The notes: generated by a model not told the origin, from the letters alone. DNA of 64,000 nucleotides from Opitutales bacterium (GCA_965197745.1 CBDANS010000005.1:288001-352000); one strand, 5' to 3'. Positions 1 to 48,266 are shown, counted from the stretch's first letter. Translations and numbers: made by a program.

Positions 1-220
1 CATCTACACTGTGTAGTTTACCTCTTATCGATTCCTGGGTAACATCCTGCGTGCCGATGACGATGATTTCATAATTTGTCGTTTGCCCCAAATGGATAAC
101 CGGTGGATCGAATCGGCTGCGGACGACAACGTTTTGCGCTTGTAATGGAGCGCTCCATAAGCACGAGGCTGAGGCAATTATTAAAAAACAAATTTTTGAT
201 AATATTGGAGAGTAATTCAT
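1..220 (-). CDS. batD: BatD-family protein, N-terminal part (runs off the window start)
   Basis: Manual translation from ATG 220, which overlaps the upstream TAA as TAATG: MNYSPILSKICFLIIASASCLWSAPLQAQNVVVRSRFDPPVIHLGQTTNYEIIVIG. Signal peptide plus BatD-like start, in the expected position after batB/C. Confidence 0.7.
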   Translation of the reverse strand, partial: MNYSPILSKICFLIIASASCLWSAPLQAQNVVVRSRFDPPVIHLGQTTNYEIIVIGTQDVTQESIRGKLHSVD

Positions 221-4794: not shown

Positions 4795-4830
4795 GCGATT
4801 ATTTGCACCTGTTAAGTTTACCTGTCCCGA

Positions 4831-18866: not shown

Positions 18867-18941
18867 GGCGCGGTAGCCAAGTGGTAAGGCCGGAGTCTGC
18901 AAAACTCCTATACGCCGGTTCGATTCCGGCCCGCGCCTCCA
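18867..18941 (+). tRNA. tRNA-Cys(GCA)
   Basis: Acceptor stem GGCGCGG/CCGCGCC, anticodon arm GGAGT-CT GCA AA-ACTCC, T-loop GGTTCGATTCC, encoded CCA. Confidence 0.97.
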
Positions 18942-19224
18942 TCTCTTTTAATAAATCTGATGATAATTAAGACTAGGGCTATAGGTATTAAATCTATCGT
19001 GAATATAGAAATGTATTTATGATTTTTCATTCACAATTATTTTCATGCCCGAAGTTTTATTAAATGTTATACTTTTTTCCGGGGATTGCGTTTAACCTCT
19101 GTGAAGTCATAATTCTGTTAAGCGTTATTGTATAGCGCTATTATATCTTCATTGATTTTTTTTAAAATTATTATACTATGTAATTTAATTTCAGGCGCTG
19201 ACGGTTAATACATCAAAGAATTCG

Positions 19225-21432
19225 ATGCTGCAACCAGCTTTTGGTTATCGTCCATTTCCCGTAATTTTTGTAATTATGGTGACTCTCCATTTTGGCGTTG
19301 TGGGAGGAGAGCAGCCCGATGAAGAGATTGTTGAGATAGATGAATTCATTGTCTACGCTCAGAAAAAACCGGAAAAGATTCAAGAGGTGCCAATTTCTTT
19401 AAGCGCTTATGCCACTGATGATATCGAAGATTGGGCGATACGTACGAGTAGAGATGTAATTTCCCAAACACCAAATCTACAGTATAATAAAACCGGTTTT
19501 ACCTCGTCCCACCCGCTCATCTTTTCACGGGGTGTCGGGATAAATGATTTTAATGTGAACTCTAGCGGCGCGGTTGGTGTTTATTCCGATGATATATATT
19601 TAAATTCACCATCGGGGCAGGTTATACAACTCTTCGACATTGAACGTATTGAAGTTTTGCGCGGTCCGCAGGGAACATTGTATGGGAGAAATACCACCGG
19701 TGGCGCCATTAATTTCATTTCCAAAAAACCAACGGGAGAAAAGGAAGGCTATGCCCAGGTCACTTATGGCAGCTATGACCAAATAGGTATTGAAGCCGCC
19801 TTTGAAGTGCCTGTGGTCAAGGATAAATCAGCATTACGCGTGTCTTTTGTCTCTAATAATCGCGATGGTTATACCTAAAATCTTTTAAATGGTAATGATG
19901 AAAATGAAATTGAAGTTTGGGCCGCAAGAGCTCTGTTGAGTATTTCGCCGAGCGATAGTTTAGATATTCTTGTTAATGTTCATGGGTGGCGCAATAGTGC
20001 CGGTTCCGGTCAATATCAGAGTGGGGGATTGATTGATGGGGCTGATGCTTTAGGTTATATCGAAAGTGCGGATCCTCTTACCGGTTCATACAGCCGTGAT
20101 GATCAGGAGAATATCGATTCCTTTGGCGCATCTGTAACTGCAAATTGGGAATCTCAGAATTTTGTATTGTCTTCGATAACAGGATATGAACAAACGGAAA
20201 AATTAATATTACAGGAAACAGATGCGAGTCCTAACCAGTTAATTGAAATCGATTGGTTCAGTGATGTCTCGCAGTTTTCCCAGGAAATTCGATTGACTCC
20301 CAATAGTGCTGATCGTCTCGAATGGATCACTGGCCTCTACTTTTTTGACGAAGATTTGTTTTCCAAAAATCAGTTCGATATATTAAGATCGTTGCGTGCT
20401 CTCGGTGTTCCTTTTAACCTCGAAAGTCCAACGGACGGGCCCTTCCTCGTAGAGCAGGATTACGATCAAGGGACTACCAGTTTTGCCGCTTTTGGTCAAT
20501 TTACCTACAATTTAAACCGTAAATTATCATTAACAGTTGGAGGGCGCTACACCTATGAGGAGCGAACTTTCAACCTTAATTCGGCTTTTGTTGAACCGGA
20601 ATTTCGCATCCCTTTAATTGATGCTTTCAGGAGTAAAATTGATGATAATGTATTTTCTGGAAAAATTGGTATCACTTATAAACCGAGTGACAGCTATATG
20701 TTTTATGCGAGTTTCAGCCGCGGATTTAAAAGCGGTGGTTTTAATGGGGGGGCCCTTTTTTTTCCTGGAGAAGCTACGGCCGTAGAACCTGAGTTTTTAA
20801 ATTCGTTTGAAGTAGGATTTAAGTCTTCCTTCTACGAAAACCGGCTGCATTTTAATACCACGGCTTTTTATTATGATTACGATAACTTACAGGTATTTAA
20901 TCTGAGGAATTTTGGTGATGTCCCCAGACAGGTATTGCAGAATGCTTCAGATGCCCGAATCTACGGGCTCGATGCCGAATTAGAGGCACAACCCGTGGAG
21001 AGATTATGGACCCGGTTGGGATTAGGGCTTCTTAATACAGAATATAAAGATTTTATTGTCGGTGATGGCACCGACTATTCTGGTAATGAACTCGTTTCAG
21101 CACCGGATGTGACATTTAACGGAGCTGTAGGCTACTCCTTCCCTCTCGGTAGTCTTGGTTCCATTACGACACGCATGGATTTTAATTTTAATGACAATAT
21201 GTTTTTTGATTCGTCGAATACGAGTCGTATTGGAGCAGATAGTTATTGGTTGTTGAATGCCAGAGTAGCATTCGAAACAAAGAATGGACGATACGCGTTG
21301 GCTTTCGTTGGTAAAAATCTAACCGACACCGTATATTTAACTGAAGTCTTTGATTTATCCGACTTTGGATTTGATCAAAAAGTCATGGGGGCCCCTAGAA
21401 CATTCGCTGTTGAGCTGACCATGCGGTTTTAA
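19225..21432 (+). pseudogene. TonB-dependent outer-membrane receptor interrupted by one in-frame TAA (19876-19878)
   Basis: ORFs 19225-19878 and 19936-21432 share a frame and read through as NNRDGYT*NLLNGNDENEIEVWAARA. TonB box EFIVYAQ, plug motif IERIEVLRGPQGTLYGRN, SRGFKSGGFN, terminal Phe. About 735 aa if read through. Confidence 0.85.
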
Positions 21433-21495
21433 ATTATACAGTCAGGGTTGATTTACTAAGAATCAATTCCCGACTAGGGTTGGCTCAATTCGGTC

Positions 21496-21538
21496 ACAGC
21501 ACACTTCTCTATGTATTATAAGGTGTGCTGTTTTTTTT
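21496..21538 (+). terminator. Putative intrinsic terminator after the TonB receptor
   Basis: Stem ACAGCACACTT/AGGTGTGCTGT with a 14-nt loop, followed by a T-run. Confidence 0.5.
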
Positions 21539-21809
21539 CATATCTGTATTGCGGGATTGTGCCGATAAAAACTTTGCTTGCAGAATTGGCTACCGTGTAT
21601 ATGAATTCTAAATGTAAAGCACGCTCATCTGTGTGGTTTACATTTTTTTTACTATAATTATTATAGCTGAAAAGAGCGGCGGGCAAGGGATCCACAATTA
21701 TTGCTTAAGATGTTGATATTCAATTGGAAAATAAATATCTGCACCAGCAGGAGGCGCCGGGTATAGATAGCCGATTGAGCACGAATTTGAGAAGATAGAA
21801 AATTGATTG

Positions 21810-24800
21810 ATGAGTAAGTATGAGAAAGAACCCATTGCCATAATTGGCATTGGTTGTCGATTTCCCGGGCGCGCTTCGACCCCAAGAGCTTTATGGGAAT
21901 TATTATGCACAGGGAAAGATGCTATTGGGGAAGTGCCATCAGATCGCTGGGATATGAGGCGATTTTACGATGCTGATCCTGATAAGCCCGGTGAAACCTA
22001 TGCTAAGGAGGGGGGATTTCTGAGTGAGAAAATCGACCAGTTTGATCCTTTATTTTTTGGCATTTCTCCCCGCGAAGCTGAAAGTATGGATCCTCAGCAG
22101 CGTTTACTTTTAGAGGTAACCTGGGAAGCACTGGAAGATGCAGGCATCATCGCAGAGGCGCTGGCAGGGACAAATACCGGGGTCTTTATAGGGGGTTTCT
22201 GTTTGGATAATAATCTACTCAAACTTGGATCGTTAAATCGACAATTGATAGATTCACATACCGGAACAAGTTCCACAATGACAATCCTTTCGAATCGGAT
22301 CTCTTATACCTTTGATCTTAAAGGTCCCAGTGTTACAATGGATACGGCCTGTTCCTCCTCTCTGGTAGCCACCCACTACGCATGTCAAAGTATATGGAAT
22401 GATGAATCTGAATTGGCCTTTGCCGGTGGCGTAAATGTCATGTTAAGGCCAGAAAATCCCATAGTAATGAGTAAAGGCAGGTTTTTATTATCCACCCATT
22501 CTCGCTGCATGGCATTCGACGAGCGGGCTGAAGGTTATGCCAGAGGAGAAGGCGCAGGTATCATCATGCTTAAACCCTTATCGCATGCCCTGAGAGATAA
22601 AGATCCAGTATATGCTCTCATTCGCATGTCGGGTGTTAATCAGGATGGGCAAACATCGGGGATTTCCTTACCGAATGCCACATCGCAGGAAAATTTGATT
22701 AAAGATGTCTATCGACGGGCTGACATTTTACCCAGCGAAATACAGTATGTGGAAGCTCATGGGACTGGAACTCAGGCGGGAGATATTGCTGAAATGAAAG
22801 CTTTGCAGGCAGTTCTTTCGGAGGGACGGTCGTCTGATAATAAATGTCTGGTGGGTTCTGTGAAAACTAATATTGGTCATTTAGAAGCCGCAGCGGGTAT
22901 TGCAGGTCTGATCAAAGCTGCATTGACACTTAAACATAAAGCAGTTCCTCCCCACCTTTATTTCGAGAAACCAAACCCCAAGATTCCTTTTGGTGAAATT
23001 TGTCTACGCGTTCCCACCCAACTTGAATCCTGGCCGTCAAGTAATGGTACCGCTTACGCCGCGGTCAATTCATTTGGCTATGGGGGAACGAATGCTCATG
23101 TCCTTCTCCAGGAACCTTCGAGTGAAGAGAAATCTAAACACAACTCGGATAATGGTCTCAATAAGCCGCTTTTAGTACCTTTGTCTGCGCGTAGTGAAAA
23201 TGCCTTAAAGGATCTTGCCGGGAAATGTGCATTTTACCTGTCGGCACACGCTACTGAATCTTCAATCGCTGATATTGCTTATACCGCCAGTCAGCGGCGA
23301 AGCCATCACTCTCAACGGCTGTCGATCTTAACCGATAGCTGGGAAGAGCTACATGAAAAATTGCTCTCCTTTTCGATGGGTGATTTAAGCGAGGGTGTAT
23401 CAACAGGACGAGCGTTACACGGGGATGACCAGAAACTGGTGTTTGTTTTTTCCGGTATGGGGCCCCAGTGGTGGGCAATGGGGAGAGAATTGATGGAGAG
23501 AGAACCGGTGTTTTCAAATGCCATAGATGAGTGTGATTCTGTGTTTCAAAAATATGCTGGATGGTCGATAAAAGAAAATTTAAGTGCAGATGAACAATCA
23601 TCGCGCATCGGAGAAACGCAGATAGCGTAACCGCTAAATTTTACAATCCAGGTCGCGTTGACTGCGCTATGGGAATCATGGGGTATAAAACCCCACGCAG
23701 TGATAGGCCACAGCGTAGGTGAAGTTAGCGCCGCATTCATTTCGGGCGCCCTAACGCTCGAAGATGCGATCAAAGTAAGTTATCACCGCAGTCGACTGCA
23801 GCAATCTCTCACTGGTGGGGGTTCCATGCTTGCGGTGGGATTATCTGAAAATGAAATTTCCGAGGTAATTGATTCCTATGAACAGGTCTCGATTGCGGCC
23901 ATTAACAGCCCAACGGCAATTACCCTTACAGGTATGACGGATGAATTAAAAAGAATTGCTTTTTCGCTTGAGGGAAAAAATATATTCAATCGTTTTCTCA
24001 AGGTAGATGTAGCTTATCATAGTTACCAGATGGAGGCTATTAAGGATGAATTGCGGGATTGCCTTGGGGAAATTAAATTCTGTGAAAATCACCTGCCCTT
24101 ATACTCGACAGTTGAAGGTGCATATATCGCGGCGAGTGAGTGGGATTCAGATTATTGGTGGAAGAATGTACGTTACCCCGTTAAGTTCGCTCCAGCGCTG
24201 AATGCGATGATCAAAGATGGGTATAGGAATTTTCTGGAGATTGGTGCTCATCCCGTGCTCGGAACTTTCATCAAGGAATGCATCCTGGAAAATGATAGTC
24301 AGAGCAATGTCATACCCTCTCTTCATCGTAATACCCCTGAATTATTCCAAATGTTAGATTCGCTGGGGCATTTATATACGCTGGGATTTTCTGTCGACTG
24401 GCAGAAGATATTGCCTGAAACGGGGCGTTTCATTTCGCTGCCCACTTATCCCTGGCAAAGAGAGCGGTATTGGAAAGAGTCGAATAAGTCGAAAGAAGAC
24501 CGGTTGGGCCAGCCAGGACATATTTTTTTAAACATCGATCTCGGATCACCTGAGCCGATTTGGGAAGTAGAGATAAATGAACATTTCTTCCCTTATCTTA
24601 AACACCACCGTGTTGAAAACAAAGTGGTATTTCCGGGTGCCGCCTATGTTGAAGCGGGACTGGCGATTCATGAGAAACTCTTCGATAAACAATCGGCTAT
24701 TTTAGAAGACATAGAATTCAATTCCATGTTGGTGGCTGAAGAGAAAAAGATACAGAAACTCTGTTTTAATCATCATCCTCAAACAAAGACTTACTCCGTT

Positions 24801-27800
24801 CACAGTCGCCTCAATGAAGACGGTGCAGATTGGAAATTGCATGCTACAGGCAAGATCTTATCAGGGCAAAGTGAAGATGAGAAACCTGCTATTAGTTTGA
24901 AGAAGATTCAAAGTCTTTGTCGGGAAGAAATGAGCAACGAGGATTTTTATGATATGCTTGAAAAGAGAGGGCTTAGTTATGGAGATTATTTCCGCAGAGT
25001 GAAACAAATATGGAAAGGCTCTGACGATTTCCTCATAAAAACAGAATCCCATCAGGACTTATCAGAAAATAACGATAACTATCTACTCCATCCCACAATA
25101 CTTGATGCCTCTTTCCAAACGATGTTGATCATGATCGGAGGTAAAAGTCCATTTGTCCCCGTATCTATTGAGCGATTAAAATTTTATCAAACTCCCGGTC
25201 GAAGGTTCTGGTCCCATGGAACTATTACCCGTCGCACTAACAATATTTTAGAAGCGGATATTAACTTTTTAGACGATGAGGGTAATATCCTTGTAGAGAT
25301 CGAGAAAGTTAAATGTCAGGCTATTTCTGCGGAGCGTAATGAGATGAGGAGGCACCAGTATTATGCAATTAATTGGGTGCAAGAAGCTGAAATGATTGAT
25401 CCTGCCCCAATAAATAATAAGAGGTGGCTTATCTTTGGCGATCGAGGAGAAATCGAAAATTCACTCCTCAACCATTTCGATTCTCAGGAGATATTTTACA
25501 CCCTGATTACAAGAGGGCGGGAATATCGGAAAATAAAAAACAATCATTACGTCATACGAGAAAATATGGCGACAGACCGAAAACAGCTTATTGCCGATTT
25601 AGGTGAAGAACAATATGATATAATTCTATATCTTTGGGGCATGGGTGAAAGTGTTGTCGATAATGATTTACATTTTAACAAAGTTATTGGCCAATGCATG
25701 CCATTAATAAATTTAGTAGAAGCATTAACGCAGGGGAATGCTGATCAAGAGGTAATATTAGGAATCGTAACGCGTGATTCACAATGTGTAATTAAGGGCG
25801 ATTCTGGAACTGGTTTATATGCAGCGCCTCTCTGGAGCTTAGGACAATTAATAGAAAATGAAGTGCCGATTATAAAATCCAAGCTTATTGATTTTGATAA
25901 GGCATATGAAGTTAGCGATGTTGATTTACTCGTGGCAGAGATAATTTCCAAGACACAAGATCGAAATGTCGCCTATCGTTTGGGTAAGAGATTCGTCCAA
26001 AAGCTGAATCACGCTGATATAGATAATTATCCTCAAAATAAAGAGACGAAAATTATCTCAACTCAATATCCCGTTTCCCTTTCATTAAAAGTTCCAGGTC
26101 AAATAGACAGCCTCGCATTCGAAGAATGTTCACGTCTGGCCCCTTCAACGGGCGAAGTGGAAATTCAGGTAGAAGCAACAGCTCTAAATTTCAAGGACCT
26201 CTTAAAAATATATGGACATATAAACGCTAAAGCAATCGAAGGCACTTTTTTTGGTGAAACTTTAGGTATGGAAATTGCAGGAAAAATTGTGAGTGTGGGT
26301 GAGGGTGTTGATAATTTTAAAGTGGGAGATGAAGTTGTAACCCCCATCTCTGGTAGTTTTCGCTCTTATGCAACGGTCTCAGACACTTACCTCATGCCTC
26401 TACCAGAAAAATTAAGAAAGGAAGAAGCGCTGAATTATATAGGGTATTTTGCCGCTTATTACGGGCTTATCGATATAGCACAATTGAAAAAGGGAGAAAA
26501 AGTTTTGATTCATAGTGCAACAGGCGGTCTGGGTTTGGCAGCGGTACAAATTGCACAATGGGTTGGCGCGGAAATATTTGCCACTGCCGGGAATGATGAG
26601 AAACGAAAATATTTAAAGGATTTAGGGATAAATAATGTGATAGATTCACGTTCCCTCGACTTCACTGAGAAAATAAGAAAAATTACCGAGAACAAGGGTG
26701 TTGACGTTATTCTTAACGCATTGTCTGGAGATAGCTTTTATCAAAGTTTTTCCCTTCTTGCTCCCTATGGTAGATTTATAGAGGTCGGGAAAAAGGACAT
26801 TGCCGACAATAATGCATTACTTCTTAGCGCCTTTAATCGTAATCTTACCTTTGCTTCAGTAGATGTAGACCGCATGCTTAAAGAGCGGCCGGAAATAATC
26901 ACAAGGCTTTCGAAGGACATAAATCGAGGTTTTGAAGAAGGTTATTTTTGGGCATTACCAACCAAAATATTTCCCGCTTCTGAAGTGGTTGAAGCATTCC
27001 GGTATATGTCGCAGAGCAAGCATATCGGTAAGATTGTCGTAACCATGCAAGACCAGGAAGTCCCCGCCTTAACGATAGCTCATAAAAGAGAAATTCTTCG
27101 AAAAGACGGGACTTATTTGGTCACCGGCGGAACTCGTGGATTCGGACTGGAAGTGGCTAAATGGCTCTCGAAGAAAGGCGTGGATCAACTAGCTCTTATT
27201 AGTCGTAGCGGTGCAGTAACGGAAGAAGCTAAAGCAGCTATTACTGAAATAGAGATGGAGGGGACTTCGGTGAAAGTAGCTGATGTTGATATCACCGAAG
27301 GGTTGCAGGTAAAACAACTCTTCGAAGATATTAATTCAGGAATGCCCCCCTTACGGGGCATTTTCCATAGCGCGATGGTGCTCGATGATGGGTATTTAAA
27401 GGATCTTGATGAGCATCGCCTTCGCAAGGTTATGGCCCCTAAAGTAGCCGGTATTTTAAATCTACACGAGAACACAAAAAAATTAAATTTGGATTACTTT
27501 GTGTCCTTCTCTTCAGTTTCCTCGCTCATTGGTAATACCGGTCAGGGAAATTATGTCGCAGCTAATGCTTTTCTCGATGCTTTCGCACACTACCGTCGAG
27601 CCAGAAACTTACCTGCTTTAACTATAAATTGGGGGGTTATGGAGGAGACTGGGGTCGTTGCTCGTAACGCTGATATTGCAAGACATTTAAAAAATATTGG
27701 AATCCGCGGAATTTCTACGGACCAGGCTTTAGAGGCGCTCGAAAAATTGCTTGATGAAAATCCGATTCAAATGGGGGTTTTCAACATAGATTGGGAACAG

Positions 27801-28208
27801 TGGGCAATGGCTTATCCTCACGGTGCGGACTCCTCTCGTTATAGTGCATTGATAGAAAGTGATCTTGCCGGTTATAATTCTCAAAAAACTGAGAAATATA
27901 AATGTATGGTGGAGGAACTTTCCAATCTTGGTAGTGGTGAAAGGCAAAAACGCTTTGAAACACTTATTTCTGAGCAGTTGGTGACTGTTATGCATATCCC
28001 CGCCGATAAAATTGATCATCATCAAAGTTTCAAAAACCTGGGCATAGATTCACTAATGACGCTAGAAATAAGACTGGCTTTTAAATCGAACCTTGGAATT
28101 GAGATCTCCTCAGTTGATCTATTAACCGAATCTTCAATCTCACAACTGGCAACTCAGTTGCTGGATAAAATAGTTGCCATACCGGTAATGGATGAGGCGC
28201 TTATTTGA
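21810..28208 (+). pseudogene. Single-module reducing type I polyketide synthase (KS-AT-DH-ER-KR-ACP) interrupted by one in-frame TAA (23628-23630)
   Basis: KS: DTACSSS, EAHGTGT, NIGHLE. AT: GMGPQW, GHSVG, VAYHS. DH: HRVENKVVFP, HPTILD. ER: LNFKD, HSATGGLG. KR: GGTRGFG, LDD, GQGNYVAAN. ACP: LGIDSLM. The two ORFs share a frame; ETQIA*PLNFTIQVAL matches the AT consensus AQP. About 2132 aa if read through. Confidence 0.9.
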
Positions 28209-28343
28209 TTTGTGAACGCTGAACCATGTGATTCAAAAAAGCATGCATCTTTAATCTCTTATAATCGAATGAAACCTTACAGACCTATACTTGTGCTTGA
28301 TGAAATTAAAACCGTGTATCTCATTTCAGCCTTTTATAATATA

Positions 28344-29747
28344 GTGGAAACAACTCTTTCTGGAATTGACAGTATAGTCGTTTTTCAAAACAGCCAGGGA
28401 CTAGCCAGTCGTGGCACATTAGTCCACATTACTCGAACTAAAGTCGTATTTGAAGTCTACAATCCTTATTCAATCGTCCAATTAAGCGAAGTCCTCGGAG
28501 GAGTAAAAGTGCTTCGAGGAGAAAGAACAATTTATAATGGTAAAGCTGTCGTTAATAACATCGTACCCACAGGATTAATGGTGATTATATCTGCCTCATT
28601 AATAGATGCCTGGTCTGACCTCTCTGGATTGCGAACGGGGGAAGGCCTAAAAGAGGAAACCCAACGCTTTGTTAATGATTGGGAGGATTCACACGTGCTG
28701 AGGCCTTCTTATCAACTGATTGTTGGGACAATTAGAAATTTTCTCGAAGAACTGAGTTTATGGCTTGATGAGGCAGAGACCGGGTTACTCGAAATGGGAG
28801 ATACCGATAGCTCTGATTCACAGAGACAGGAGTTTTACGAGGAAGTCGAAAATCCTCTCAGGCCGATTATTGCATCATTATATGAAAAATTTGAAGAGGA
28901 GGCTATGCGCGTTCCCTATGAAGATGTAATGACACATAAATCGTTCGCGCGAAGAGAACTGCACCCCTTAACCATGTGTTCCCCCTTTGTTCATCGCACC
29001 TACACTAAACCACTGGGCTATGCTGGAGATTATGAAATGGTGAATATGATGCTAGGGGAATCGGAAACCCCCGATCTGAATACCTATGCAAGAATAGTTC
29101 ATGCTTACCATATTCATGCGTCAGCACCGGAGGCTCATCGCAATCGAATAAAAATGCTGGAGAATCGCCTGAAAGCTGAAGCGATTAGAGTAAACGAAGA
29201 AGGACGCCCCTTTACCGTGCTTAATGTCGCTTGTGGTCCAGCGGTGGAACTTCAGAGATTTATTCGGAATGAAGAAATTTCCAACCACGCTGTATTTCAT
29301 TTACTGGATTTCAACAGAGAAACGATCGATTATGTGGAAGAAAAAATATCAGGAGTCATTCGTGAAAGCTCTCATAAGCCGATGGTTAAATTCATACATA
29401 AGTCGATCGATACTCTGCTCAAAGAAGTGTATGAAAAAGAAAATGGTAATTCGCCCACCTATGATTTGGTTTATTGTGCCGGCCTTTTTGACTATTTTAC
29501 TGATCAGACCTGTAAGCAGCTGGTCCCCTTATTTTTTGATTGGGTCAGAGTTGGAGGGCTTTTGACCGTTACTAATGTTCATCCTGATAATCCGGACCGC
29601 CATCAAATGGAACATTTACTTGAGTGGCATCTTAATTACCGCGATGAATATGAGATGAAGGCCCTTGCTCCAGCAAATACTAATGGTAATGTGATTACGG
29701 ATGATACTAAGATAAATGTTTTTCTTGATGTTCGTAAAATGGAATAA
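28344..29747 (+). CDS. PhcB-like class I SAM-dependent methyltransferase (fatty-acid methyl ester signal synthase family)
   Basis: RTYTKPLGYAGDYEMVNM, AHRNRI, SAM motif VLNVACGPA, LVYCAGLFDY, EWHLNYR; first gene of a B-S-R-Q-like cassette. Start uncertain: GTG 28344 preferred, longest ORF starts at 28212. Confidence 0.78.
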   Translation: METTLSGIDSIVVFQNSQGLASRGTLVHITRTKVVFEVYNPYSIVQLSEVLGGVKVLRGERTIYNGKAVVNNIVPTGLMVIISASLIDAWSDLSGLRTGEGLKEETQRFVNDWEDSHVLRPSYQLIVGTIRNFLEELSLWLDEAETGLLEMGDTDSSDSQRQEFYEEVENPLRPIIASLYEKFEEEAMRVPYEDVMTHKSFARRELHPLTMCSPFVHRTYTKPLGYAGDYEMVNMMLGESETPDLNTYARIVHAYHIHASAPEAHRNRIKMLENRLKAEAIRVNEEGRPFTVLNVACGPAVELQRFIRNEEISNHAVFHLLDFNRETIDYVEEKISGVIRESSHKPMVKFIHKSIDTLLKEVYEKENGNSPTYDLVYCAGLFDYFTDQTCKQLVPLFFDWVRVGGLLTVTNVHPDNPDRHQMEHLLEWHLNYRDEYEMKALAPANTNGNVITDDTKINVFLDVRKME

Positions 29748-29750
29748 ACC

Positions 29751-32330
29751 GTGAAAAATATTATTACCGATTCCTTTCTTCACGAAGCGTACCAAAAAAC
29801 CGATACTGACTTACGGTTACGTCATACTAAAGCGGGATGTGTCATATCCTATTTTTGTATGCCCGCTGGAGCGGCCTTAGACTATTATGTTTATAATGCT
29901 TTTTTATGGCCATTTTTTAAAATCAGGCTGCTTATAAGTTTTTTGGCATTTATTATTTTCCTCCTCCTCTATACCTCAACAGGGCGCAATTATATTAAAG
30001 TTTTTGGTATTATTTGGGTCTTAATGTTGAACCTTTCTTTTTGTTGGATGATTTATTTAACCGAGGGATCGGTGTCGCCATATTACGCAGGTATCAGTTT
30101 AATTATTCTCGGTGTTGCCGTGCTTTTACCATGGTCTGTTGGCGAAACTTTATTGGTATGTGTTGTTTCTATTGGTATGTATCTATTAACCTGCCTTATT
30201 CATAATTATACAGTCCCCGGGCCTTTTAATTATGACATCCTGTTCAATAATGTTTACTTTTTGATTCTTACTAGCTTGATATGTACCACTGCGAGTCATT
30301 TTTATTCGAATAATCGATTCCAGGAATTTCTCCTTCGTCACGAATTGGATATTCGGAATAAGAAACTGGAAGAATTAGACCAGTTGAAGTCTCAATTCTT
30401 CGCCAATGTCAGTCATGAATTACGGACACCGCTTACCCTCATACTTTCACCAATAGAAGATTTATTGCGCCGGAGTGAGAAATTACCGGGTAAAGTTCAT
30501 GAATCTTTACTCGTTTCACATAGAAACGCACTGCGCCTCCTTAAGCTAATTAACGAATTACTTGATATCATGCGTTTGGAGGAAAAGGGATTCACGCTCT
30601 CCAAAGAATCCATAAATTTGAATGTATTTATTCCGGGGATAGTAGATTCAGTCAGGCATTTAAGTGAGGTTAAAAACTTAAGGTTAGTATCTGATGTAGA
30701 AGAGGACTCGGTCCTGGTCGAAGCCGATCCCGATCGAATGGAAAAAGTGCTCCTTAATCTTCTCAGTAATGCCGTAAAATTTACTCCAAGCGGCGGAAAA
30801 ATAATTCTCCGAATACGATCAAAAAATGAACGGGCTCTAATCGAAGTGGAAGATGACGGGATCGGTATTGCGGATGAAGATTTACCCCATATTTTTAAGC
30901 GATTTCATCAAGTTGATGGGGCGACAACAAGAAATTTTCAAGGAGTAGGTATTGGACTGGCCCTCGCTCGCGATCTCGTAGAAAAGCACGAAGGTAGTCT
31001 TACCGCTAAAAGTGAACCGGGGAAGGGGACAACATTTACGATTGATCTCCCTCTAATAGAGACTGCAGAAGAAATTGAAATTTCTAAAAATAGCGAATTA
31101 CCCGGGGACGAGCCTTTCGCGCAGGTTTTTCAATCCGCTAATCGCGTTTTGGAAAAACACAGTACCGCAGATAATAGCATGTTGCCAGCTGTAGGCAGTG
31201 GAGATTTCACTATTCTTGTCGTTGATGATGAACCCGATATGCTTCGCTATCTGGTCACAACCCTCGCTGAAGAATATCGTGTGCTGCAAGCGATCAATGG
31301 GGAACAGGCCATAAAACTGACGCAGACCCATAATCCTGACTTGCTTCTCCTTGACTGGATGTTACCCGGTCGTGATGGATTGGCGGTATGCCGAACTTTG
31401 CGGGAGAGCAAAATGAATGACTTAAAAATTATTTTACTTACTTCGCGCATCGATGAAGCTTCAAAAATAAAAGCTTTGGAGGAGGGAGCGGACGATTTTC
31501 TGACTAAGCCATTTAGTACAATTGAAGTCAGAACGCGAATTGCCAATCAGTTGCGCATTGCCACCTTACAGAAAGACCAACGCCAACGTAATATTGAATT
31601 GGAGGATACCTTAAACCAATTGAAAAATACTGAATCTCAATTGGTTCAAAGTGAAAAAATGAATGCCATCGGCAGTCTTGCCGCCGGGCTGTTACATGAA
31701 ATAAATAATCCGCTTAATTACACCTTAACGGCGTTGCAGGTGGGACGAGAATCCGTTGCAGAAGAAAATAATGATTTGATTGAGACTATGGATGATATCG
31801 ATGAAGGAATGAAGCGGATTAGAGATATAGTCTCGGATTTACGTGATTTCGCCTATCCCAGTAGCATAAGCAAACAACAAAGATTTGAATTGAATGGAGC
31901 TTTGGATACCGCGGTCCGTCTTTTATCGCATGAGTTTAATGGGCTTTCCATAACAAGGGAGATTAGTGATGAATGTAATATTTATGCGTCCAAGACTCAG
32001 TTTATTCAGGTCCTGGTAAACCTGTTGATGAACTCTTCAAAAGCAGTAAAAGAGACATCAAAAATACGAAAACCAATAATAAAAGTTACAGGAAAGAGGG
32101 AAAATGAGAACGCGGTAATTAGTGTTTGGGATAATGGTAACGGTATAAACCCGGACGTATTGGGAAACATTTTTGATCCTTTTTTTACGACCCGAGAAGT
32201 GGGCGAAGGGATGGGCCTTGGTTTAAGTATATGCCATACCATCGTGAAAAATAATGGCGGATCCATTCGGGCTATAAGTGAAGAGGGTGAATGGACGGAA
32301 ATCATTACTGAATTCCCACCCGATAATTAG
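29751..32330 (+). CDS. PhcS-like membrane hybrid sensor histidine kinase (TM-HisKA-HATPase-REC-HisKA-HATPase)
   Basis: Several N-terminal TM helices; FFANVSHELRTPL, NLLSNAVKF, GVGIGLAL; REC LVVDDE..LLDWMLP..KPF; second core LLHEINNPL, NLLMNS, GMGLGLSI. Confidence 0.85.
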   Translation: MKNIITDSFLHEAYQKTDTDLRLRHTKAGCVISYFCMPAGAALDYYVYNAFLWPFFKIRLLISFLAFIIFLLLYTSTGRNYIKVFGIIWVLMLNLSFCWMIYLTEGSVSPYYAGISLIILGVAVLLPWSVGETLLVCVVSIGMYLLTCLIHNYTVPGPFNYDILFNNVYFLILTSLICTTASHFYSNNRFQEFLLRHELDIRNKKLEELDQLKSQFFANVSHELRTPLTLILSPIEDLLRRSEKLPGKVHESLLVSHRNALRLLKLINELLDIMRLEEKGFTLSKESINLNVFIPGIVDSVRHLSEVKNLRLVSDVEEDSVLVEADPDRMEKVLLNLLSNAVKFTPSGGKIILRIRSKNERALIEVEDDGIGIADEDLPHIFKRFHQVDGATTRNFQGVGIGLALARDLVEKHEGSLTAKSEPGKGTTFTIDLPLIETAEEIEISKNSELPGDEPFAQVFQSANRVLEKHSTADNSMLPAVGSGDFTILVVDDEPDMLRYLVTTLAEEYRVLQAINGEQAIKLTQTHNPDLLLLDWMLPGRDGLAVCRTLRESKMNDLKIILLTSRIDEASKIKALEEGADDFLTKPFSTIEVRTRIANQLRIATLQKDQRQRNIELEDTLNQLKNTESQLVQSEKMNAIGSLAAGLLHEINNPLNYTLTALQVGRESVAEENNDLIETMDDIDEGMKRIRDIVSDLRDFAYPSSISKQQRFELNGALDTAVRLLSHEFNGLSITREISDECNIYASKTQFIQVLVNLLMNSSKAVKETSKIRKPIIKVTGKRENENAVISVWDNGNGINPDVLGNIFDPFFTTREVGEGMGLGLSICHTIVKNNGGSIRAISEEGEWTEIITEFPPDN

Positions 32331-32341
32331 GAACTGATTTT

Positions 32342-33592
32342 ATGCATCAAGGATACAATTATAAAGAGAACATCGTATTATTCGTCGACGACGAAGAAAA
32401 AGCGCTGAAATATTTCCATAAAGCTTTTGATAAAGATTTTCAAATTATGACAGCGACAAGCGCTGAAGAAGGTTGGAGCATCATTGAAGAAAAAGGTGGG
32501 AAAATTGCGGTTCTTATATCAGACCAACGCATGGCTGGCAAAACAGGGGTGGAGCTATTAGGGCAAGCTTTTGAGGCATATCCGGGCATCATGCGAATAC
32601 TAACCACGGCCTATTCTGATTTGGACAGCGCGATTGATGCCGTCAATGAAGGGTCTATCTATCAATACGTGGTAAAACCCTGGGATACACGAGAGTTGAG
32701 TGCGGTATTAAAGCGGGCTATCGAATTCTATTCAGTGCAAAAAGAACGCGATATATTATTAAAAGAAAAAATGAGTGTCGTGCAGCGATTGATCATAACT
32801 GATCGGGTCCAAAGTTTTTCGGTTCTTGCTGCGGGCTTGGAGATTAACCTCAATAATACTTTAATGGCATTAGCGAGCTTTGTCGGATTTATACCGACGA
32901 AACTTCAAGAGGAATGGACATATTCAGTTATAAATGACAGTCTGGGTCACTGGTTTGATTTAGGATTACTGGTAAAGGAAGAAAGTAAATCTATTCTGGG
33001 ACTGGTAAAAGAAATTGTAGCTTCCACCGAAGAAAGGAGTGCAAAAATATACGAAAAGAGAAACCTGGAAGATTTAATTAATCCGAGCGTGGAATTGGCG
33101 ACAAAACTTGCAGCTGATTCAGGCAAACGCATCGAGGTGGAATTAAGTTCTGATCTGCCCAAACTGGAAGTTCAATCTGAAATGATAGAGGAATGTTTTC
33201 GTGGATTATTAACGGGGTTGGTCTCTTTCTCTGAGCAGGGCAAAACCCTGTGTATAAGTGCCAAAGAATGCTCAAACGAGGGGGCCACCCCGGGGACATT
33301 GATCAGGGTTTATGAAAAAGGGGTTTCCTGGGATGACCGACAGATGGCGCGCTTATTTTCGGTCTTTACGCAAGATAAAGAGCCAGGCATAAGTCTCAGT
33401 CTCCTCACTGCTTTTTTCATTATCTATCACCATAGTGGCACAATTTCGATCAATCCAACATTTCAAGAAGGAGGGGGTATTGAAATTTTACTCCCTTTTG
33501 ATCCCCAAGCTGTAGAATTAAGGCAAACAGATAATGATAGTTTAGAGATACTTCTCTCGCATTTTCAGCGCTGGGACGTAGAAAGACTTTAA
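32342..33592 (+). CDS. Receiver + degenerate histidine-kinase domain protein (PhcR/PhcQ-like)
   Basis: REC LFVDDE..ISDQRM..KPW. HisKA-like LAAGLEINLNN lacks the phospho-His; degenerate HATPase (IYHHSGTI). Confidence 0.75.
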   Translation: MHQGYNYKENIVLFVDDEEKALKYFHKAFDKDFQIMTATSAEEGWSIIEEKGGKIAVLISDQRMAGKTGVELLGQAFEAYPGIMRILTTAYSDLDSAIDAVNEGSIYQYVVKPWDTRELSAVLKRAIEFYSVQKERDILLKEKMSVVQRLIITDRVQSFSVLAAGLEINLNNTLMALASFVGFIPTKLQEEWTYSVINDSLGHWFDLGLLVKEESKSILGLVKEIVASTEERSAKIYEKRNLEDLINPSVELATKLAADSGKRIEVELSSDLPKLEVQSEMIEECFRGLLTGLVSFSEQGKTLCISAKECSNEGATPGTLIRVYEKGVSWDDRQMARLFSVFTQDKEPGISLSLLTAFFIIYHHSGTISINPTFQEGGGIEILLPFDPQAVELRQTDNDSLEILLSHFQRWDVERL

Positions 33593-33601
33593 TTAATTTA
33601 A

Positions 33602-34867
33602 ATGATGTTAGATACAGTTAATAAAAAGTTCGCTATTCTGTATGTAGACGATGAAGAAAAATCTCTACAAAATTTTAAGCGCGCCCTTAAAGATAAATTT
33701 AAAATTTTCACCGCGGTGAATGCGGAAGAAGGCTATCAGATATTTGAAAAGCATAATAGGGAAATAGGGCTGCTCATTACAGATCAGAGAATGCCGGGTG
33801 AAAAAGGCGTGGAATTATTAGAAAAGGCACGGCATTTACAACCCCGGGTCATCCGCATTCTCGTAACCGCTTACTCTGACATTGATGCCGCTATCGATGC
33901 GGTCAATGCAGGAGCGATATATAAATATGTCACTAAGCCGTGGGATATACGCGAACTGGAATTAACCTTAATGCGTGGTCTTGAGTTTTTTGCGGTGCTG
34001 AAAGAAAGAGATCGTCTGATGCAAGAGAAGTTTTCTGCGCTCCATAATATGGTCATTACAGACCGTGTCATCAGTCTCGGTATTCTTGCCGCGGGATTAG
34101 GTCATTATGTGCGTAACTCTATGGTTGCCGTTAGAACCTTCCTCGATTTAGCGCCGATGAGACTGAAAGAGGAAAATATTAACATAGATCATTTACAAAA
34201 TCCAAAGTTCTGGAAGGAGTTCTACGAACACGTCCAAAACCAGGTACTGAGAATTATTAAATTATTAGATGACCTCGGTATCGCTGCAGAAAATACCTCT
34301 ACTCTTCCAGATGAACAATTATCCCTGAAAGATGTAATTGAAAATGTCCAATTGAAATTAAGTGATGATCTGAAGAAAAAAGAGATAAATATAACCCGGG
34401 AATTTGCTGATGATTTGCCACTCTTGAACGTGGATAGCGTAAAGTTTCATCGTTTATTTGAGTTATTGCTTAAAGATGAATTAATAAATTTACCGTCCGG
34501 CAGTGACATTTACATCAAAGCAGAAAAAATTGATCCTGAGTACGAAGATGGATACAATGTTAAGTTGGAAATTGAAGATAATGGACCCGGTTTACCTGAA
34601 GATGAAATAAGTTCAATATTCGATCCCTTTTATTTGCGTGGAGCAGATCAGCAGGAATTTGGGATTAACCTTATGGCCTGCTATTTTATAGTGTATCACC
34701 ACGGTGGGCATATTGAAGTAAAGAGTAAGGAAGAAGAAGGCACAAAATTTATCCTCTCCTTTAAGGCAGACCATCAGGCAGTAGTAACGTTGGAGGAAGA
34801 ACGTGAATTTCTAACAAAAGTTCTGATGAATGAAAAAATGTGGGAGAAAATGCTTGCCGACTATTAA
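33602..34867 (+). CDS. Receiver + histidine-kinase domain protein (PhcR/PhcQ-like)
   Basis: REC LYVDDE..ITDQRM..KPW, then LAAGLGHYVRN, EDNGPG, FDPF, YHHGGHI; paralogue of the upstream gene. Confidence 0.78.
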   Translation: MMLDTVNKKFAILYVDDEEKSLQNFKRALKDKFKIFTAVNAEEGYQIFEKHNREIGLLITDQRMPGEKGVELLEKARHLQPRVIRILVTAYSDIDAAIDAVNAGAIYKYVTKPWDIRELELTLMRGLEFFAVLKERDRLMQEKFSALHNMVITDRVISLGILAAGLGHYVRNSMVAVRTFLDLAPMRLKEENINIDHLQNPKFWKEFYEHVQNQVLRIIKLLDDLGIAAENTSTLPDEQLSLKDVIENVQLKLSDDLKKKEINITREFADDLPLLNVDSVKFHRLFELLLKDELINLPSGSDIYIKAEKIDPEYEDGYNVKLEIEDNGPGLPEDEISSIFDPFYLRGADQQEFGINLMACYFIVYHHGGHIEVKSKEEEGTKFILSFKADHQAVVTLEEEREFLTKVLMNEKMWEKMLADY

Positions 34868-46257: not shown

Positions 46258-46439
46258 AATTGGCTTAGAATTGTGGCGTAAATTTTAAGTTAGATTGATG
46301 TTTACAATATTAAAATATCAATAGGTTTTTATCATTTATAAAAACCCCTTATCGTTGAAAATATCTCTTTAGAGCGATTTATCGAAAATTTATCTTACCT
46401 TTGGAAAATAGTATGAAGTCCAATTATATTGGTGCATTT

Positions 46440-48224
46440 TCACTCATACAATGCCTTTCGCAAGGGTTCGAGTTGGTTCTCATATTTTTTCCAGAGTTGA
46501 ACTGAATCCTTATACATAGGTCGACGGACCTGGACGGCACTAGCCGTATCTACTTTCCTTTTCGTTTTATGGAAATCCAGGCAGGATTCTTCCCAGGGTA
46601 AACCGCAATAGGTAAGGAGCTTTTTTGTTTGTTCATCCTGGTCGGAAACTAATTCCTCGTAGCTAAAATCATATATGAAATCAGGAATAATATTTCTCCA
46701 GTGATCCATCAAATCCAGATAGAGTTTATAATACTGCCCGAGTTCCTTCAATTCATATGTATATTTATGTTCTCCAGTAAAATTATGTTTAAAAATTGAA
46801 TAGCAATTGTCCATGGGATCCCGCATGCAATGAATAACTTTTGCCTTAGGTAAAATTGTTTTGATGAGGCCAATCATTTTGTAATTATAGGGTGCTTTGT
46901 CTGTAATGTGCTTTGAGACCGAAGCCTCAGAGTGTTTTCGTATTCTCTCAATATAGCTTGATCCTAAAGCTAAAAACTCATCATCATCCAGTTCTGACAG
47001 GTATTCGGGAAATTTCTTTCCCGTTCTCTTAGAACAGAAAATATTTGTCATATAAGATAAATCACATAGTTCACCTGCGCCGAATACCTGGGAGTGACTG
47101 GAGAGGATCTGCTCCACGAGTGTCGTCCCTGATCTTGGCATCCCCAAAATAAACAGGGGTGTTTCGTCAGGATTTCCGGTATGTGAGTGGCTCGGGAAAA
47201 AATCGGGTGAGAACACCTCCTTTATTTTTTCAAATGACTCTTTATGTCCTTCAATCGAATATTGAAAAGACATTCGCTTCAACCTGTTACCCTCTAAAAG
47301 ATAATTAGACGATTTGTTGTAATCGTTCAAATCCTCAAAAGCCTTACCCAATCCAAATGCGATGTAGATCTTATGTTTGGATGATATGTCGCTACGAGCG
47401 TACAATTTTTCCATTGCTCGAATGGCATTATTATATTCATGGTGTTTTCTTGCAGTGGATAAATGAAAATGTGCTTGAGCGAAGTCTGGTTGTATGGAAA
47501 TGGCTTTTTCGTAACTGGCAACGGCCTCATCCAGACGACCTAGAGATCTGAATACATTGCCCAGGTTGCTGTGTGCGTGTGCGTAGTCGGATTTGAGGGA
47601 AATAGCTTTTTGCAAACTGGCAATAGCTTTATCAAGCCGACGCTTTTTACTGAGCGCAATGCCAAGGTTGCAGTGAGCTTCAGCAAAGGCTGGTTTGAGG
47701 GAAACAGCTTGTTCATAACTGGCAATGGCCTCATCATGTTGGTCCGACTCATTGAGAGCGAGGCCGAGGTTGCAGTGTGCTTTAGCGAAATTCGGATTGC
47801 AGGAAATAGCTTTACGATAATGGGTAATGGCCTCAATCAGCTGACCCATATTTCTGAGTATATTGCCAAGATTATTATGTGTTTCTGCATTATCCGGATT
47901 AAGGGAAATGGCTTTTTGGAAACTGGCTACAGCCTCATCAAATCGACTTAAATCGCGAAGCGCATTGCCTAGATTACAATACATTTCTGGAATATTCGGA
48001 TTGGCTGCTATGGCTTTTTCGATATACTGTATAGCAGTGTCATTTTTCCCAACCTGATGCGCAATTATACCAAGGTAATGGTTAGCCGCAGCATTATCAG
48101 AGTCAGCGGAAAGTATTTGACGGTAAATTCGCTCGGCCTGTTGGAGGTGTCCGGCTTTATGATGCTGAAGTGCTAACTGAATGGGAGTTACAGTCTGCAC
48201 CGTGGACTTTCGATCAGGTGGCAT
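46440..48224 (-). CDS. TPR-repeat + sulfotransferase domain protein (paralogue 2)
   Basis: QLALQHHKAG, TPRs, GMPRSGTTLVEQIL, TDKAP, RDPMDNCYS. Confidence 0.9.
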   Translation of the reverse strand: MPPDRKSTVQTVTPIQLALQHHKAGHLQQAERIYRQILSADSDNAAANHYLGIIAHQVGKNDTAIQYIEKAIAANPNIPEMYCNLGNALRDLSRFDEAVASFQKAISLNPDNAETHNNLGNILRNMGQLIEAITHYRKAISCNPNFAKAHCNLGLALNESDQHDEAIASYEQAVSLKPAFAEAHCNLGIALSKKRRLDKAIASLQKAISLKSDYAHAHSNLGNVFRSLGRLDEAVASYEKAISIQPDFAQAHFHLSTARKHHEYNNAIRAMEKLYARSDISSKHKIYIAFGLGKAFEDLNDYNKSSNYLLEGNRLKRMSFQYSIEGHKESFEKIKEVFSPDFFPSHSHTGNPDETPLFILGMPRSGTTLVEQILSSHSQVFGAGELCDLSYMTNIFCSKRTGKKFPEYLSELDDDEFLALGSSYIERIRKHSEASVSKHITDKAPYNYKMIGLIKTILPKAKVIHCMRDPMDNCYSIFKHNFTGEHKYTYELKELGQYYKLYLDLMDHWRNIIPDFIYDFSYEELVSDQDEQTKKLLTYCGLPWEESCLDFHKTKRKVDTASAVQVRRPMYKDSVQLWKKYENQLEPLRKALYE

Positions 48225-48266
48225 CTTTGTTCTGAGTTAATTTAAAATATAACTAAGGCAATTTAT

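Follow-up and report, generated by a model that had tools for sequence, protein, structure and literature searches.

Does a run of co-oriented genes in the window (the whole 64,000-nt stretch of DNA analyzed here) encode a self-contained lipid signaling module, in which a polyketide synthase (PKS) supplies a Phc-type quorum-sensing system? The run occupies 19225..34867 on the + strand, 3′ of a tRNA-Cys (GCA) predicted by ARAGORN (18867..18941, + strand), a landmark that marks the 5′ border of a variable locus and is present in identical form at the same syntenic position in the relatives G001 and G002. An initial annotation had counted six co-oriented genes after the tRNA; their position and strand held, but the number did not, as the run comprises eight ORFs, with the genes for a TonB-dependent receptor and for the PKS each split by an in-frame TAA codon. 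The domain calls were borne out by Pfam, which returned Plug and TonB barrel domains, KS, AT, DH, ER, KR, and ACP domains, a weak Methyltransf_25 match, two HisKA/HATPase matches with one receiver, and two receiver proteins (RR1 and RR2), one of them with a clear HATPase. The methyltransferase motif KPLGYAGDYEMVNM was found in the sequence, and the intergenic gaps had been given correctly (3 nt between methyltransferase and kinase, 11 nt between kinase and RR1, and 9 nt between RR1 and RR2).

The receptor gene (19225..21432, + strand) is broken by a TAA at 19876-19878, which leaves the Plug domain (2.4e-16) on one half and the barrel (6.7e-43) on the other in Pfam searches. Downstream, 64 nt past the receptor stop, lies a terminator-like hairpin with an 11-bp stem followed by U8 (21496..21538, + strand), whose fold of -14.5 kcal/mol (z = -4.19) was equaled in stability by none of 200 shuffled sequences. 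A consensus terminator scan overlooked this hairpin because its loop is 14 nt long.

In the full model of the initial annotation, the receptor brings in a methyl ester derived from the PKS, and the kinase reads it. Receptor and cassette are same-strand neighbors in this window alone: a receptor stands beside the cassette in 0 of 83 related loci (3 strong matches among relatives and the best 80 of 583 GTDB relatives), and a conserved receptor beside the cassette in intact relatives was looked for and not found. No orthologue exists in 10 relatives, where the best matches are 27-29% identical and lie at other genome sites, and the place of the receptor in G001 and G002 is taken by four different genes. 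Together with the break and the terminator hairpin between receptor and PKS, these observations remove the receptor from the module and render the import model highly improbable. The TonB receptor is an unrelated, broken, strain-specific neighbor of the cassette. The remainder, 21807-34867 of the window, is a predicted five-gene operon-like cassette for a PKS resembling mycocerosic acid synthase (MAS), a PhcB-family methyltransferase, a PhcS-derived hybrid kinase, and PhcQ-like and PhcR-like proteins.

Four genes related to phcBSRQ

In Ralstonia and closely related bacteria, Phc signaling is known to switch virulence; the signal derives from ordinary fatty-acid metabolism, and the output regulator in Ralstonia is the LysR-type protein PhcA. 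Within the cassette, no regulator gene is conserved. Excerpts of PMC6989110 report phc homologues in Cupriavidus and Paraburkholderia, and we compared the cassette with the phc operon of Cupriavidus necator (L087) as a stand-in for the R. solanacearum proteins. Reciprocal single or best matches with this operon bear out the proposed kinship of the four 3′ genes: judged by sequence, the methyltransferase, the kinase, RR1, and RR2 are homologues of Burkholderiaceae phcBSRQ.

The putative SAM methyltransferase (28344..29747, + strand; 467 aa) belongs to a family of >4000 relatives, some of which are named 3-hydroxypalmitic acid methyl ester biosynthesis protein by JGI. A longer ORF starts at 28212; since homologues and the database copy are about 467 aa long, the start is probably at 28344, 135 nt past the PKS stop. 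The protein is 42% identical to the C. necator PhcB homologue over residues 7-462 (E about 1e-116), each being the single match of the other between the C. necator genome and the genome containing the window (G000), and it holds all 19 invariant columns of the family alignment. The AF2 model (pLDDT 86.8) consists of a β-barrel, a helical domain, and a class I methyltransferase domain. Pfam at E ≤ 10 returned only Methyltransf_25 and Methyltransf_12 and no PilZ domain at the N-terminus, where the small β-barrel modeled at residues 10-86 may represent a degenerate PilZ-like fold.

The membrane hybrid kinase (29751..32330, + strand; 859 aa) is predicted to contain a PhcS-like TM sensor, a HisKA-HATPase block, a receiver, and a PhcS-type kinase core. 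Identity to C. necator PhcS is 41% over residues 606-856 (2e-62) and 28% over residues 10-437 (1e-44), while residues 488-856 match PhcR at 26%; the best match of C. necator PhcS in G000 is this kinase, with 197 bits vs 77 for the next locus. Pfam found no periplasmic domain, and the sensor is entirely membrane-embedded. The PhcQ-like RR1 (32342..33592, + strand) carries a receiver 47% identical to that of PhcQ (3e-45) and a degenerate kinase-like domain, with a HATPase match at only E = 0.064; it and its two orthologues are devoid of the DHp histidine and the G1 box. The PhcR-like RR2 (33602..34867, + strand), a receiver with a histidine kinase domain (Pfam Response_reg and HATPase_c) and no DNA-binding domain, aligns with PhcR over its full length (22% identity, 1e-27) and retains the GLGHYV (histidine) and DNGPG (G1 box) motifs. 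This pattern of histidine and G1 box sets RR1, a putative pseudo-kinase, apart from RR2. The excerpted text of PMC8578825 describes PhcR as a receiver with a kinase domain and PhcQ as a receiver, neither with a DNA-binding domain.

A MAS-like PKS gene inactivated in this lineage

The first gene of the cassette (21807..28208, + strand) is a pseudogene of a putatively iterative type I PKS with Pfam and NCBIfam domains in the order KS-AT-DH-ER-KR-ACP. According to Pfam, NCBIfam, and a match to PDB 9d2z, it is a single module without thioesterase and collinear with MAS; over their full lengths, the G001 orthologue (66% identity) and the mycocerosic acid synthase 9d2z align at 1015 bits. The active-site motifs are present and the GxDSL motif of the ACP is conserved. 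The AT motifs GHSVG and VDVAYHS differ from GHSQG and VDYASHS of the methylmalonyl-specific DEBS ATs.

The in-frame TAA of the PKS gene (23628..23630, + strand) lies at codon 608 in the AT domain, aligned with an invariant Gln (ETQIAQP) of the G001 and G015 PKSs, and a second sequencing run reads TAA at the same site. In the sister strain, contig X6 carries CAA here, but a TGG>TGA change interrupts the gene at codon 1135. Between the strains, 12 of 14 PKS differences alter the protein (P = 0.37 under neutrality; P ≤ 9e-4 for omega ≤ 0.2), an estimate based on a single contig at a depth of ~7, some of whose 18 differences could be errors. Among related loci, the frame is apparently uninterrupted in nine (a single full-length match or a single long ORF), ends at the contig edge in L013, and lies in three pieces in L027. 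These results indicate that replacement of the AT-domain Gln by a stop has inactivated the PKS here and that its gene is, by all appearances, drifting neutrally.

Both breaks are TAA, and the one in the PKS falls exactly on the Gln of the relatives, as would be expected if in-frame TAA codons were translated, by readthrough or by recoding (to Gln, for instance), leaving PKS and receptor functional. TAA terminates the receptor, methyltransferase, RR1, and RR2 genes of the same cassette, however, and the remaining same-frame ORF junctions in the window separate distinct genes. The sister strain, with its CAA at the site, its TGA elsewhere in the PKS, and its mostly non-synonymous differences (12/14), also speaks against recoding, to which we give almost no credence.

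The claim of a self-contained working module does not hold for this strain, in which the PKS carries a nonsense mutation and evolves like a pseudogene. With its PKS inactivated, the cassette can here be no more than a sensor that has lost its synthase, and it is more probably a relic. In G001, the kinase gene is frameshifted at a site near a T5 run, which may be an assembly error. G002 lacks the PKS, methyltransferase, kinase, and RR1 genes at the same syntenic locus and keeps, of the cassette genes, only an RR2 orthologue and an extra receiver-kinase gene. The comparison of these loci indicates that the module is decaying in this lineage.

Conserved PKS linkage and a proposed signaling pathway

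The gene order of the cassette is conserved beyond chance. A same-strand kinase match lies 3′ of the methyltransferase gene in 83 of 83 related loci (the best match being ≤2.1 kb from the methyltransferase start in 82), and a collinear full-length PKS ends 31-184 nt before it in 11 of 83, namely 3/3 strong matches among relatives and 8/80 GTDB loci (the best 80 of 583). In a phylum sample, 15 of 401 genomes have the methyltransferase cassette, six of these 15 with a linked PKS and all six from the order of G000; within the genus of G001, one of three genomes has the cassette. No PKS is adjacent at the Myxococcota loci L014 and L018. The 12 PKS-linked methyltransferases group in a single clade (SH-aLRT 99) that lies almost entirely within this verrucomicrobial order; a single change suffices to explain the linkage, and none of 500 label shuffles required as few. 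PKS and methyltransferase identities to the window drop broadly in parallel across loci. The PKS-phcB adjacency proposed for this locus is thus seen in further genomes, where the linked methyltransferases are monophyletic, and the PKS-Phc link is real and conserved; we found no published description of it. G001 has extra NRPS-like genes (AMP-binding, C-PCP) ahead of its PKS; no conserved gene was found 5′ of the PKS, and, apart from the methyltransferase gene, no tailoring, release, or secretion gene is conserved with it.

In intact relatives, the PKS would assemble a reduced acyl chain, bound to the ACP of the synthase itself, and the PhcB-like enzyme would convert this chain to a methyl ester. 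The ester would diffuse out and be read by the PhcS-like TM domain of the kinase. From there, phosphate would pass via the receiver of the kinase and via RR1 and RR2 to an output. That the PKS feeds the methyltransferase is an inference. In Ralstonia, PhcB works without a PKS, and the methyltransferase of the cassette might likewise draw on fatty-acid intermediates of ordinary metabolism; the PKS, moreover, has no thioesterase to free the acid for O-methylation. Both points count against the PKS-to-ester step. Taken as a whole, the reading that combines homology of the cassette to phcBSRQ, clade-wide PKS linkage, PKS-to-methyl-ester signaling in intact relatives, and decay here has in our estimate a probability of about 0.55.

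Alternatively, the signal may not come from the PKS, which would instead be a companion or target of the signaling system: the PhcB-like enzyme would methylate a common 3-hydroxy fatty acid, as its Ralstonia counterpart does, and the PKS would make a separate lipid or secondary metabolite under the control of the kinases. The methyltransferase-kinase pair occurs without a PKS at 72 of 83 loci (two of them with too little upstream DNA to judge), that is, in most of the family; the abstract of PMC9197120 describes regulation of PKS/NRPS products such as ralsolamycin by the Ralstonia Phc system; and the NRPS-like genes before the G001 PKS fit this arrangement as well. Yet the PKS is fixed directly 5′ of the methyltransferase gene on the same strand throughout one clade and nowhere else, and since no other tailoring or release enzyme is conserved, the methyltransferase is the one enzyme that accompanies it throughout. 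We therefore consider a target or companion role fairly unlikely.

The cassette could also be a private circuit of lipid homeostasis or envelope upkeep, in which the lipid produced by PKS and methyltransferase serves in the membrane or in storage and is monitored by the multi-pass kinase within the membrane of the same cell. MAS-like PKSs are known for cell-envelope lipids, as the names of the matched molecules reflect, and the wholly membrane-embedded sensor without a periplasmic Pfam domain and the lack of a conserved secretion gene would suit such a circuit. Against it stand the homology of all four signaling parts to a demonstrated quorum-sensing system, the patchy, accessory distribution (15/401 phylum genomes; 1/3 in the genus of G001), and the repeated loss, which suits a dispensable social trait better than envelope upkeep. 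A lipid circuit is thus quite improbable.

Returning to PKS-fed signaling, we propose tentatively, at somewhat less than even odds, that one order of Verrucomicrobiota reshaped the Phc design around a private methyl-ester autoinducer of polyketide origin, a new signal class that the MAS-like PKS and the PhcB-like enzyme make and a kinase resembling a PhcS/PhcR fusion reads, and that the family represented in the window is losing this system in three ways, through nonsense mutations of the synthase in two strains, through a frameshift of the kinase, and through a deletion spanning PKS to RR1. Such a pattern is what one would expect of a social trait that can be dispensed with, and close relatives with breaks of separate origin provide a natural experiment in how signal production is lost. 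The four-part Phc design is spread over many phyla and is welded to its own PKS in one verrucomicrobial clade, a linkage that suggests a new lipid methyl-ester signal and, with two candidate enzymes and a candidate receptor now identified, opens a concrete way toward a bacterial signal molecule of a new kind. To our knowledge, cell-to-cell signaling in Verrucomicrobiota is almost unstudied.

Among known systems, the best named NCBIfam matches of the signaling proteins are the Leptospira hybrid kinases LvrA and LvrB (NF047465/NF047466), LvrA for residues 196-843 of the window kinase and LvrB for residues 8-386 of RR2. Membership in these families was rejected, as the scores are far below the NCBIfam cut-offs (304.7 vs 1200; 58.2 vs 500), and we know of no methyltransferase or PKS link for Lvr. 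The PKS shares its KS-AT-DH-ER-KR-ACP order, collinearity, and lack of a thioesterase with MAS and MAS-like mycobacterial PKSs (PDB 9d2z; NCBIfam Pks2_ls1_myc); Pks2_ls1_myc matches both window PKS halves with scores below its cut-offs, and thus the PKS is not an equivalog. The partner of the cassette PKS is a methyltransferase, whereas that of MAS in mycobacteria is an acyltransferase.

A further close likeness is to the Phc system itself. The methyltransferases belong to the same family over their full length (42% identity, reciprocal single match) and are followed at once by a membrane kinase, which in the cassette has a PhcS-like TM region and kinase core. Both systems have receiver proteins without DNA-binding domains, of which one is a predicted live kinase (PhcR-like) and the other is not (PhcQ-like). 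In contrast to Phc, the cassette has a MAS-like PKS gene added at its 5′ end, an extra HisKA-HATPase-receiver block between the PhcS-like sensor and the PhcS-like core of the 859-aa kinase, the Q-like and R-like genes in reversed order, and, in intact relatives, one additional receiver-kinase gene, and its host belongs to Verrucomicrobiota, not Burkholderiaceae.

Gene content downstream of the tRNA-Cys gene

All long ORFs from 19225 to 34867 lie on the forward strand, downstream of a tRNA-Cys gene detected by ARAGORN (18867-18941). The initial annotation described co-oriented genes after this tRNA, which is correct, but the receptor and the PKS are each interrupted by one in-frame TAA. Searches against Pfam/NCBIfam placed the Plug domain of the TonB receptor in a 5′ piece (19225-19878) and its barrel in a 3′ piece (19936-21432), with the stop at 19876-19878. 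The PKS is split at 23628-23630 into a 5′ piece with KS and the N-terminal portion of AT (21807-23630) and a 3′ piece carrying the rest of AT, DH, ER, KR and ACP (23658-28208). The methyltransferase ORF of 511 aa has only a weak match to Methyltransf_25 (E = 0.0012), and contains the motif KPLGYAGDYEMVNM reported in the initial annotation. Because its database copy and relatives are ~465-467 aa in length, translation most likely starts at 28344 (28344-29747). The hybrid kinase (859 aa, 29751-32330) contains two HisKA/HATPase regions separated by a receiver, and is followed by two receiver proteins of ~420 aa, RR1 (32342-33592), in which HATPase_c is only faint (E = 0.064), and RR2 (33602-34867), in which it is clear. 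The spacings of 3, 11 and 9 nt between the last four genes were as annotated, and their products are full-length with catalytic motifs.

Consensus scans were uninformative for both promoters (40 promoter-like sites versus 41.9 expected) and terminators (12 versus 14.9 expected). The cassette has a GC content of about 0.37-0.47, compared with 0.425-0.46 in the contigs, a difference too slight to define a genomic island. The flanks of the locus are shared within the family: one holds Mfd, RNase III, a ParA-like gene and tRNA-Cys, the other a DAO oxidoreductase. The synteny with the relatives G001 and G002 argues for vertical inheritance of the cassette within the family. Elsewhere in the window, the reverse strand carries a MoxR AAA ATPase-DUF58-unknown-VWA/BatA-VWA/TPR operon of the Bat aerotolerance type (220-5823) and three tandem genes (43894-49499), each for a TPR-repeat protein with a fused sulfotransferase domain (788, 594 and 410 aa).

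The TonB receptor had been proposed as a member of the module, a view that the comparison with other genomes does not support. In tblastn searches of 83 loci (see below), it was adjacent to the cassette in none, the only match being one of 45 bits about 9.9 kb upstream in L077. The best matches in ten relatives show 27-29% identity and are located elsewhere in the genome, and the interval from the corresponding tRNA-Cys to the cassette is taken up in G001 and G002 by four other genes, for proteins of 364, 1157, 634 and 357 aa. A hairpin lies after the receptor stop codon (11-bp stem, U8 tail; -14.5 kcal/mol, z = -4.19). We thus place the receptor outside the module. A 79-nt low-depth contig of the public sequencing run X6 (2.6 of 5.4) carries GAA>TAA at receptor codon 521 (20785); together with the TAA at 19876-19878, this suggests that the receptor may also be gathering stops in the population. 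Genes for the energy parts of a TonB system, ExbB and ExbD, lie ~35 kb from the broken receptor, downstream of a gene for an 880-aa TPR protein (56155-60045).

Conservation and single origin of the PKS linkage

The methyltransferase belongs to a large and well-conserved family: 4470 of the scored candidates fall at E ≤ 0.001, an exhaustive search gave 4044 cluster representatives, and GTDB species genomes contain 583 stretches. Several of the top matches carry the JGI name 3-hydroxypalmitic acid methyl ester biosynthesis protein, which we take to be the KEGG definition of phcB. Cupriavidus, Paraburkholderia, Hydrogenophaga and Polaromonas are represented in the best 80 of the 583 GTDB loci, which were those inspected. 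Homologous PhcB and PhcQ proteins are noted in Ralstonia, Cupriavidus and Paraburkholderia in a passage of PMC6989110. Between the two genomes, the window protein and its C. necator homologue match only each other, at 42% identity (E about 1e-116). Modelled with AlphaFold2 (pLDDT 86.8), the methyltransferase has a beta-barrel at its N-terminus (residues 10-86), then a helical domain (102-285) and a methyltransferase domain of class I (290-464); a Foldseek search of the model against PDB retrieved generic SAM methyltransferases only (best 3ocj, 8e-10) and offered no hint about the N-terminal domains.

Strong matches to the methyltransferase were found in 4 of 41 genomes of relatives, namely the source genome itself, G001 (82% identity), G015 (62%) and G035 (55%), and G007 has only a weak match (19%). 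The latter three strong-match genomes encode a same-strand PKS of 2130-2536 aa directly upstream and a kinase and two receiver proteins downstream. We searched the window proteins by tblastn against 83 loci, comprising three relatives and the best 80 of the 583 GTDB loci. A same-strand kinase match lies 3′ of the methyltransferase gene in all of them, although that in L041 is weak (54 bits), and the best match begins ≤2.1 kb from the methyltransferase start in 82 loci and at 3.0 kb in L062. In 11 of the 83, a PKS match is collinear and ends 31-184 nt upstream of the methyltransferase gene (L006-L010, L012, L016, L040 and L057, as well as L013, where the contig end truncates it, and L027, where it is in three pieces). 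L026 and L075 have <200 nt of upstream DNA, so that the presence of a PKS is not judgeable there. L018, L062 and L077 were rejected as PKS-linked, as their weak KS- or ER-like matches do not represent a PKS of the mycocerosic acid synthase (MAS)-like kind. When 401 genomes were sampled evenly across the phylum, 15 proved to encode the methyltransferase, and the PKS C-terminus is directly upstream in 6 of these; all six belong to the order of the source genome, and none of the nine from outside the order has the PKS. The adjacency of PKS and phcB homologue that the initial annotation proposed to seek is thus found in both surveys. Since the phylum-sample genomes may overlap the GTDB loci, the number of distinct PKS-linked genomes observed is 12 to 16.

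In a maximum-likelihood tree of 84 methyltransferases, all 12 PKS-linked rows fall on one side of one branch (SH-aLRT 99), and the nearest PKS-free rows are from Planctomycetota and Myxococcota. One state change is enough to explain the linkage on this tree, compared with a mean of 11.5 for shuffled labels, and none of 500 shuffles was as low. The PKS link is conserved and has a single origin. L040, from a MAG labelled Methylococcales, is PKS-linked and has a second methyltransferase copy (1994-3388) upstream of the PKS; as it groups within the verrucomicrobial clade, transfer or mis-binning is likely.

Neighbour clustering detected nothing else conserved upstream of the PKS. A further receiver-HisKA-HATPase gene (~370 aa) is often found downstream of the cassette and is missing from the window. 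Directly upstream of its PKS, G001 also encodes two further proteins, a 489-aa stand-alone AMP-binding enzyme and a 605-aa condensation-PCP protein (L006, 1820-5177). This pair is missing from the window and the other PKS-linked loci and is possibly a lineage-specific starter-loading or amide-forming extension.

Decay of the cassette in this lineage

The TAA in the PKS aligns to the invariant Gln of ETQIAQP. Recoding of TAA is very unlikely because the same codon is the terminal stop of the receptor, the methyltransferase, RR1 and RR2. The other same-frame ORF junctions in the window separate distinct genes. Genome-wide, 181 same-frame ORF pairs are separated by one stop (96 TAA), a count that was rejected as a measure of pseudogene load, as it mixes true neighbours with broken genes.

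We compared contigs of public sequencing runs with 19200-28300 of the window. A 537-nt contig of run X7 crosses the PKS stop and is identical to the window. An 18.6-kb contig of X6 (depth about 7) spans 20786-28300 with 18 substitutions and one 3-nt deletion; it has C at 23628, giving CAA (Gln) in place of the stop, and A at 25211, converting PKS codon 1135 from TGG to TGA. The two strains therefore have different PKS stops. Their PKS sequences differ by 14 substitutions, 12 of them non-synonymous, and the probability of at least 12 is 0.37 under neutrality, where 78% of possible changes are non-synonymous, and ≤9e-4 at an omega of 0.2 or lower. Runs X2 and X4 contain every sampled word of the sequence but yielded only three short pieces each (90-95% alike), which are uninformative about the stops. 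The receptor stop at 19876 lies outside all of the contigs compared. Near-identical DNA occurs in runs X2-X7 under three organism labels from three studies, and the bacterium may therefore live with, or have been cultured beside, other organisms.

In G001 the PKS is intact, but a frameshift close to a T5 run divides the kinase; this frameshift may be an assembly error. At the syntenic locus of G002 (L093), all that remains of the cassette is the extra receiver-kinase and an orthologue of RR2 (69% identity). There was no match at this locus to the PKS, the methyltransferase, the full-length kinase or RR1, in place of which 9950-11853 of L093 contains small ORFs only; weak matches to the receiver and kinase domains of the hybrid kinase fall in other genes. 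G002 represents a clean partial deletion of the cassette.

A PKS-linked variant of the Phc design

For the Phc comparison, Ralstonia was represented by a stand-in, locus L087 of C. necator. As described in part of PMC8578825, the operon contains phcB, phcS, phcR and phcQ, PhcR having a receiver and a kinase domain and PhcQ a receiver, and neither having a DNA-binding domain. Alignments and mutual or best matches bear out the proposal that the last four genes are relatives of phcB/S/R/Q. With PhcS as query, the hybrid kinase ranked first in the source genome (197 and 142 bits; next locus 77 bits). Its residues 10-437 (the membrane part and the first kinase) are 28% identical to PhcS, its final 250 residues 41% identical to the PhcS kinase core, and residues 488-856 26% identical to PhcR. 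This pattern suggests either PhcS with an inserted HisKA-HATPase-receiver block that separates the sensor from the core, or a fusion of PhcS and PhcR. The receivers of RR1 and RR2 share 47% and 43% identity with that of PhcQ, and the full-length proteins 25% and 22% with PhcR. Because alignment with the G001 and G015 orthologues indicates that the phospho-accepting His (GLGHYV) and the DNGPG box are both kept in RR2 and both lost in RR1, we assign RR2 as PhcR-like and RR1 as a PhcQ-like pseudo-kinase.

The cassette represents a genuine new version of the Phc design that is conserved, and the window holds a decaying copy of it. In such a system, the PKS would produce a reduced acyl chain, the PhcB-like enzyme would convert it into a methyl ester, and the PhcS-like membrane domain would sense the ester; phosphate would then pass from the internal receiver of the hybrid kinase via RR1/RR2 to an unspecified output. 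With no thioesterase, the model lacks a release step, which is a genuine gap. A complex prediction for the methyltransferase and the ACP domain (score 0.00) weighs neither for nor against the model. The main rival explanation is that the PKS product would be a co-regulated lipid and not the signal precursor.

The combination of PKS and Phc, which the initial annotation did not know to be described, was not found in the full-text literature, subscription journals being outside the scope of the search. Among the papers listed for PhcB with polyketide synthase and methyltransferase were those on Ralstonia ralsolamycin/ralstonins, and those listed for PhcB with biosynthetic gene cluster do not appear to concern a PKS-linked PhcB homologue. 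PhcB with Verrucomicrobi gave incidental mentions only (e.g. in a part of PMC12950752), and Phc quorum-sensing homologs with Planctomycet gave nothing.

Among known synthases, MAS (9d2z) is collinear with the G001 PKS over its whole length (residues 3-2112 versus 2-2092, 1015 bits), and on the basis of this end-to-end alignment we class the PKS as MAS-like, fully reducing and single-module, without a thioesterase. The GxDSL motif of the ACP is conserved, and the AT motifs of the cassette PKS, GHSVG and VDVAYHS, differ from GHSQG and VDYASHS of the DEBS ATs. Whereas PhcS and PhcR are separate proteins in the Phc system as described in PMC8578825, the 859-aa hybrid kinase of the window appears to carry the extra HisKA-HATPase-receiver block or to fuse the two.
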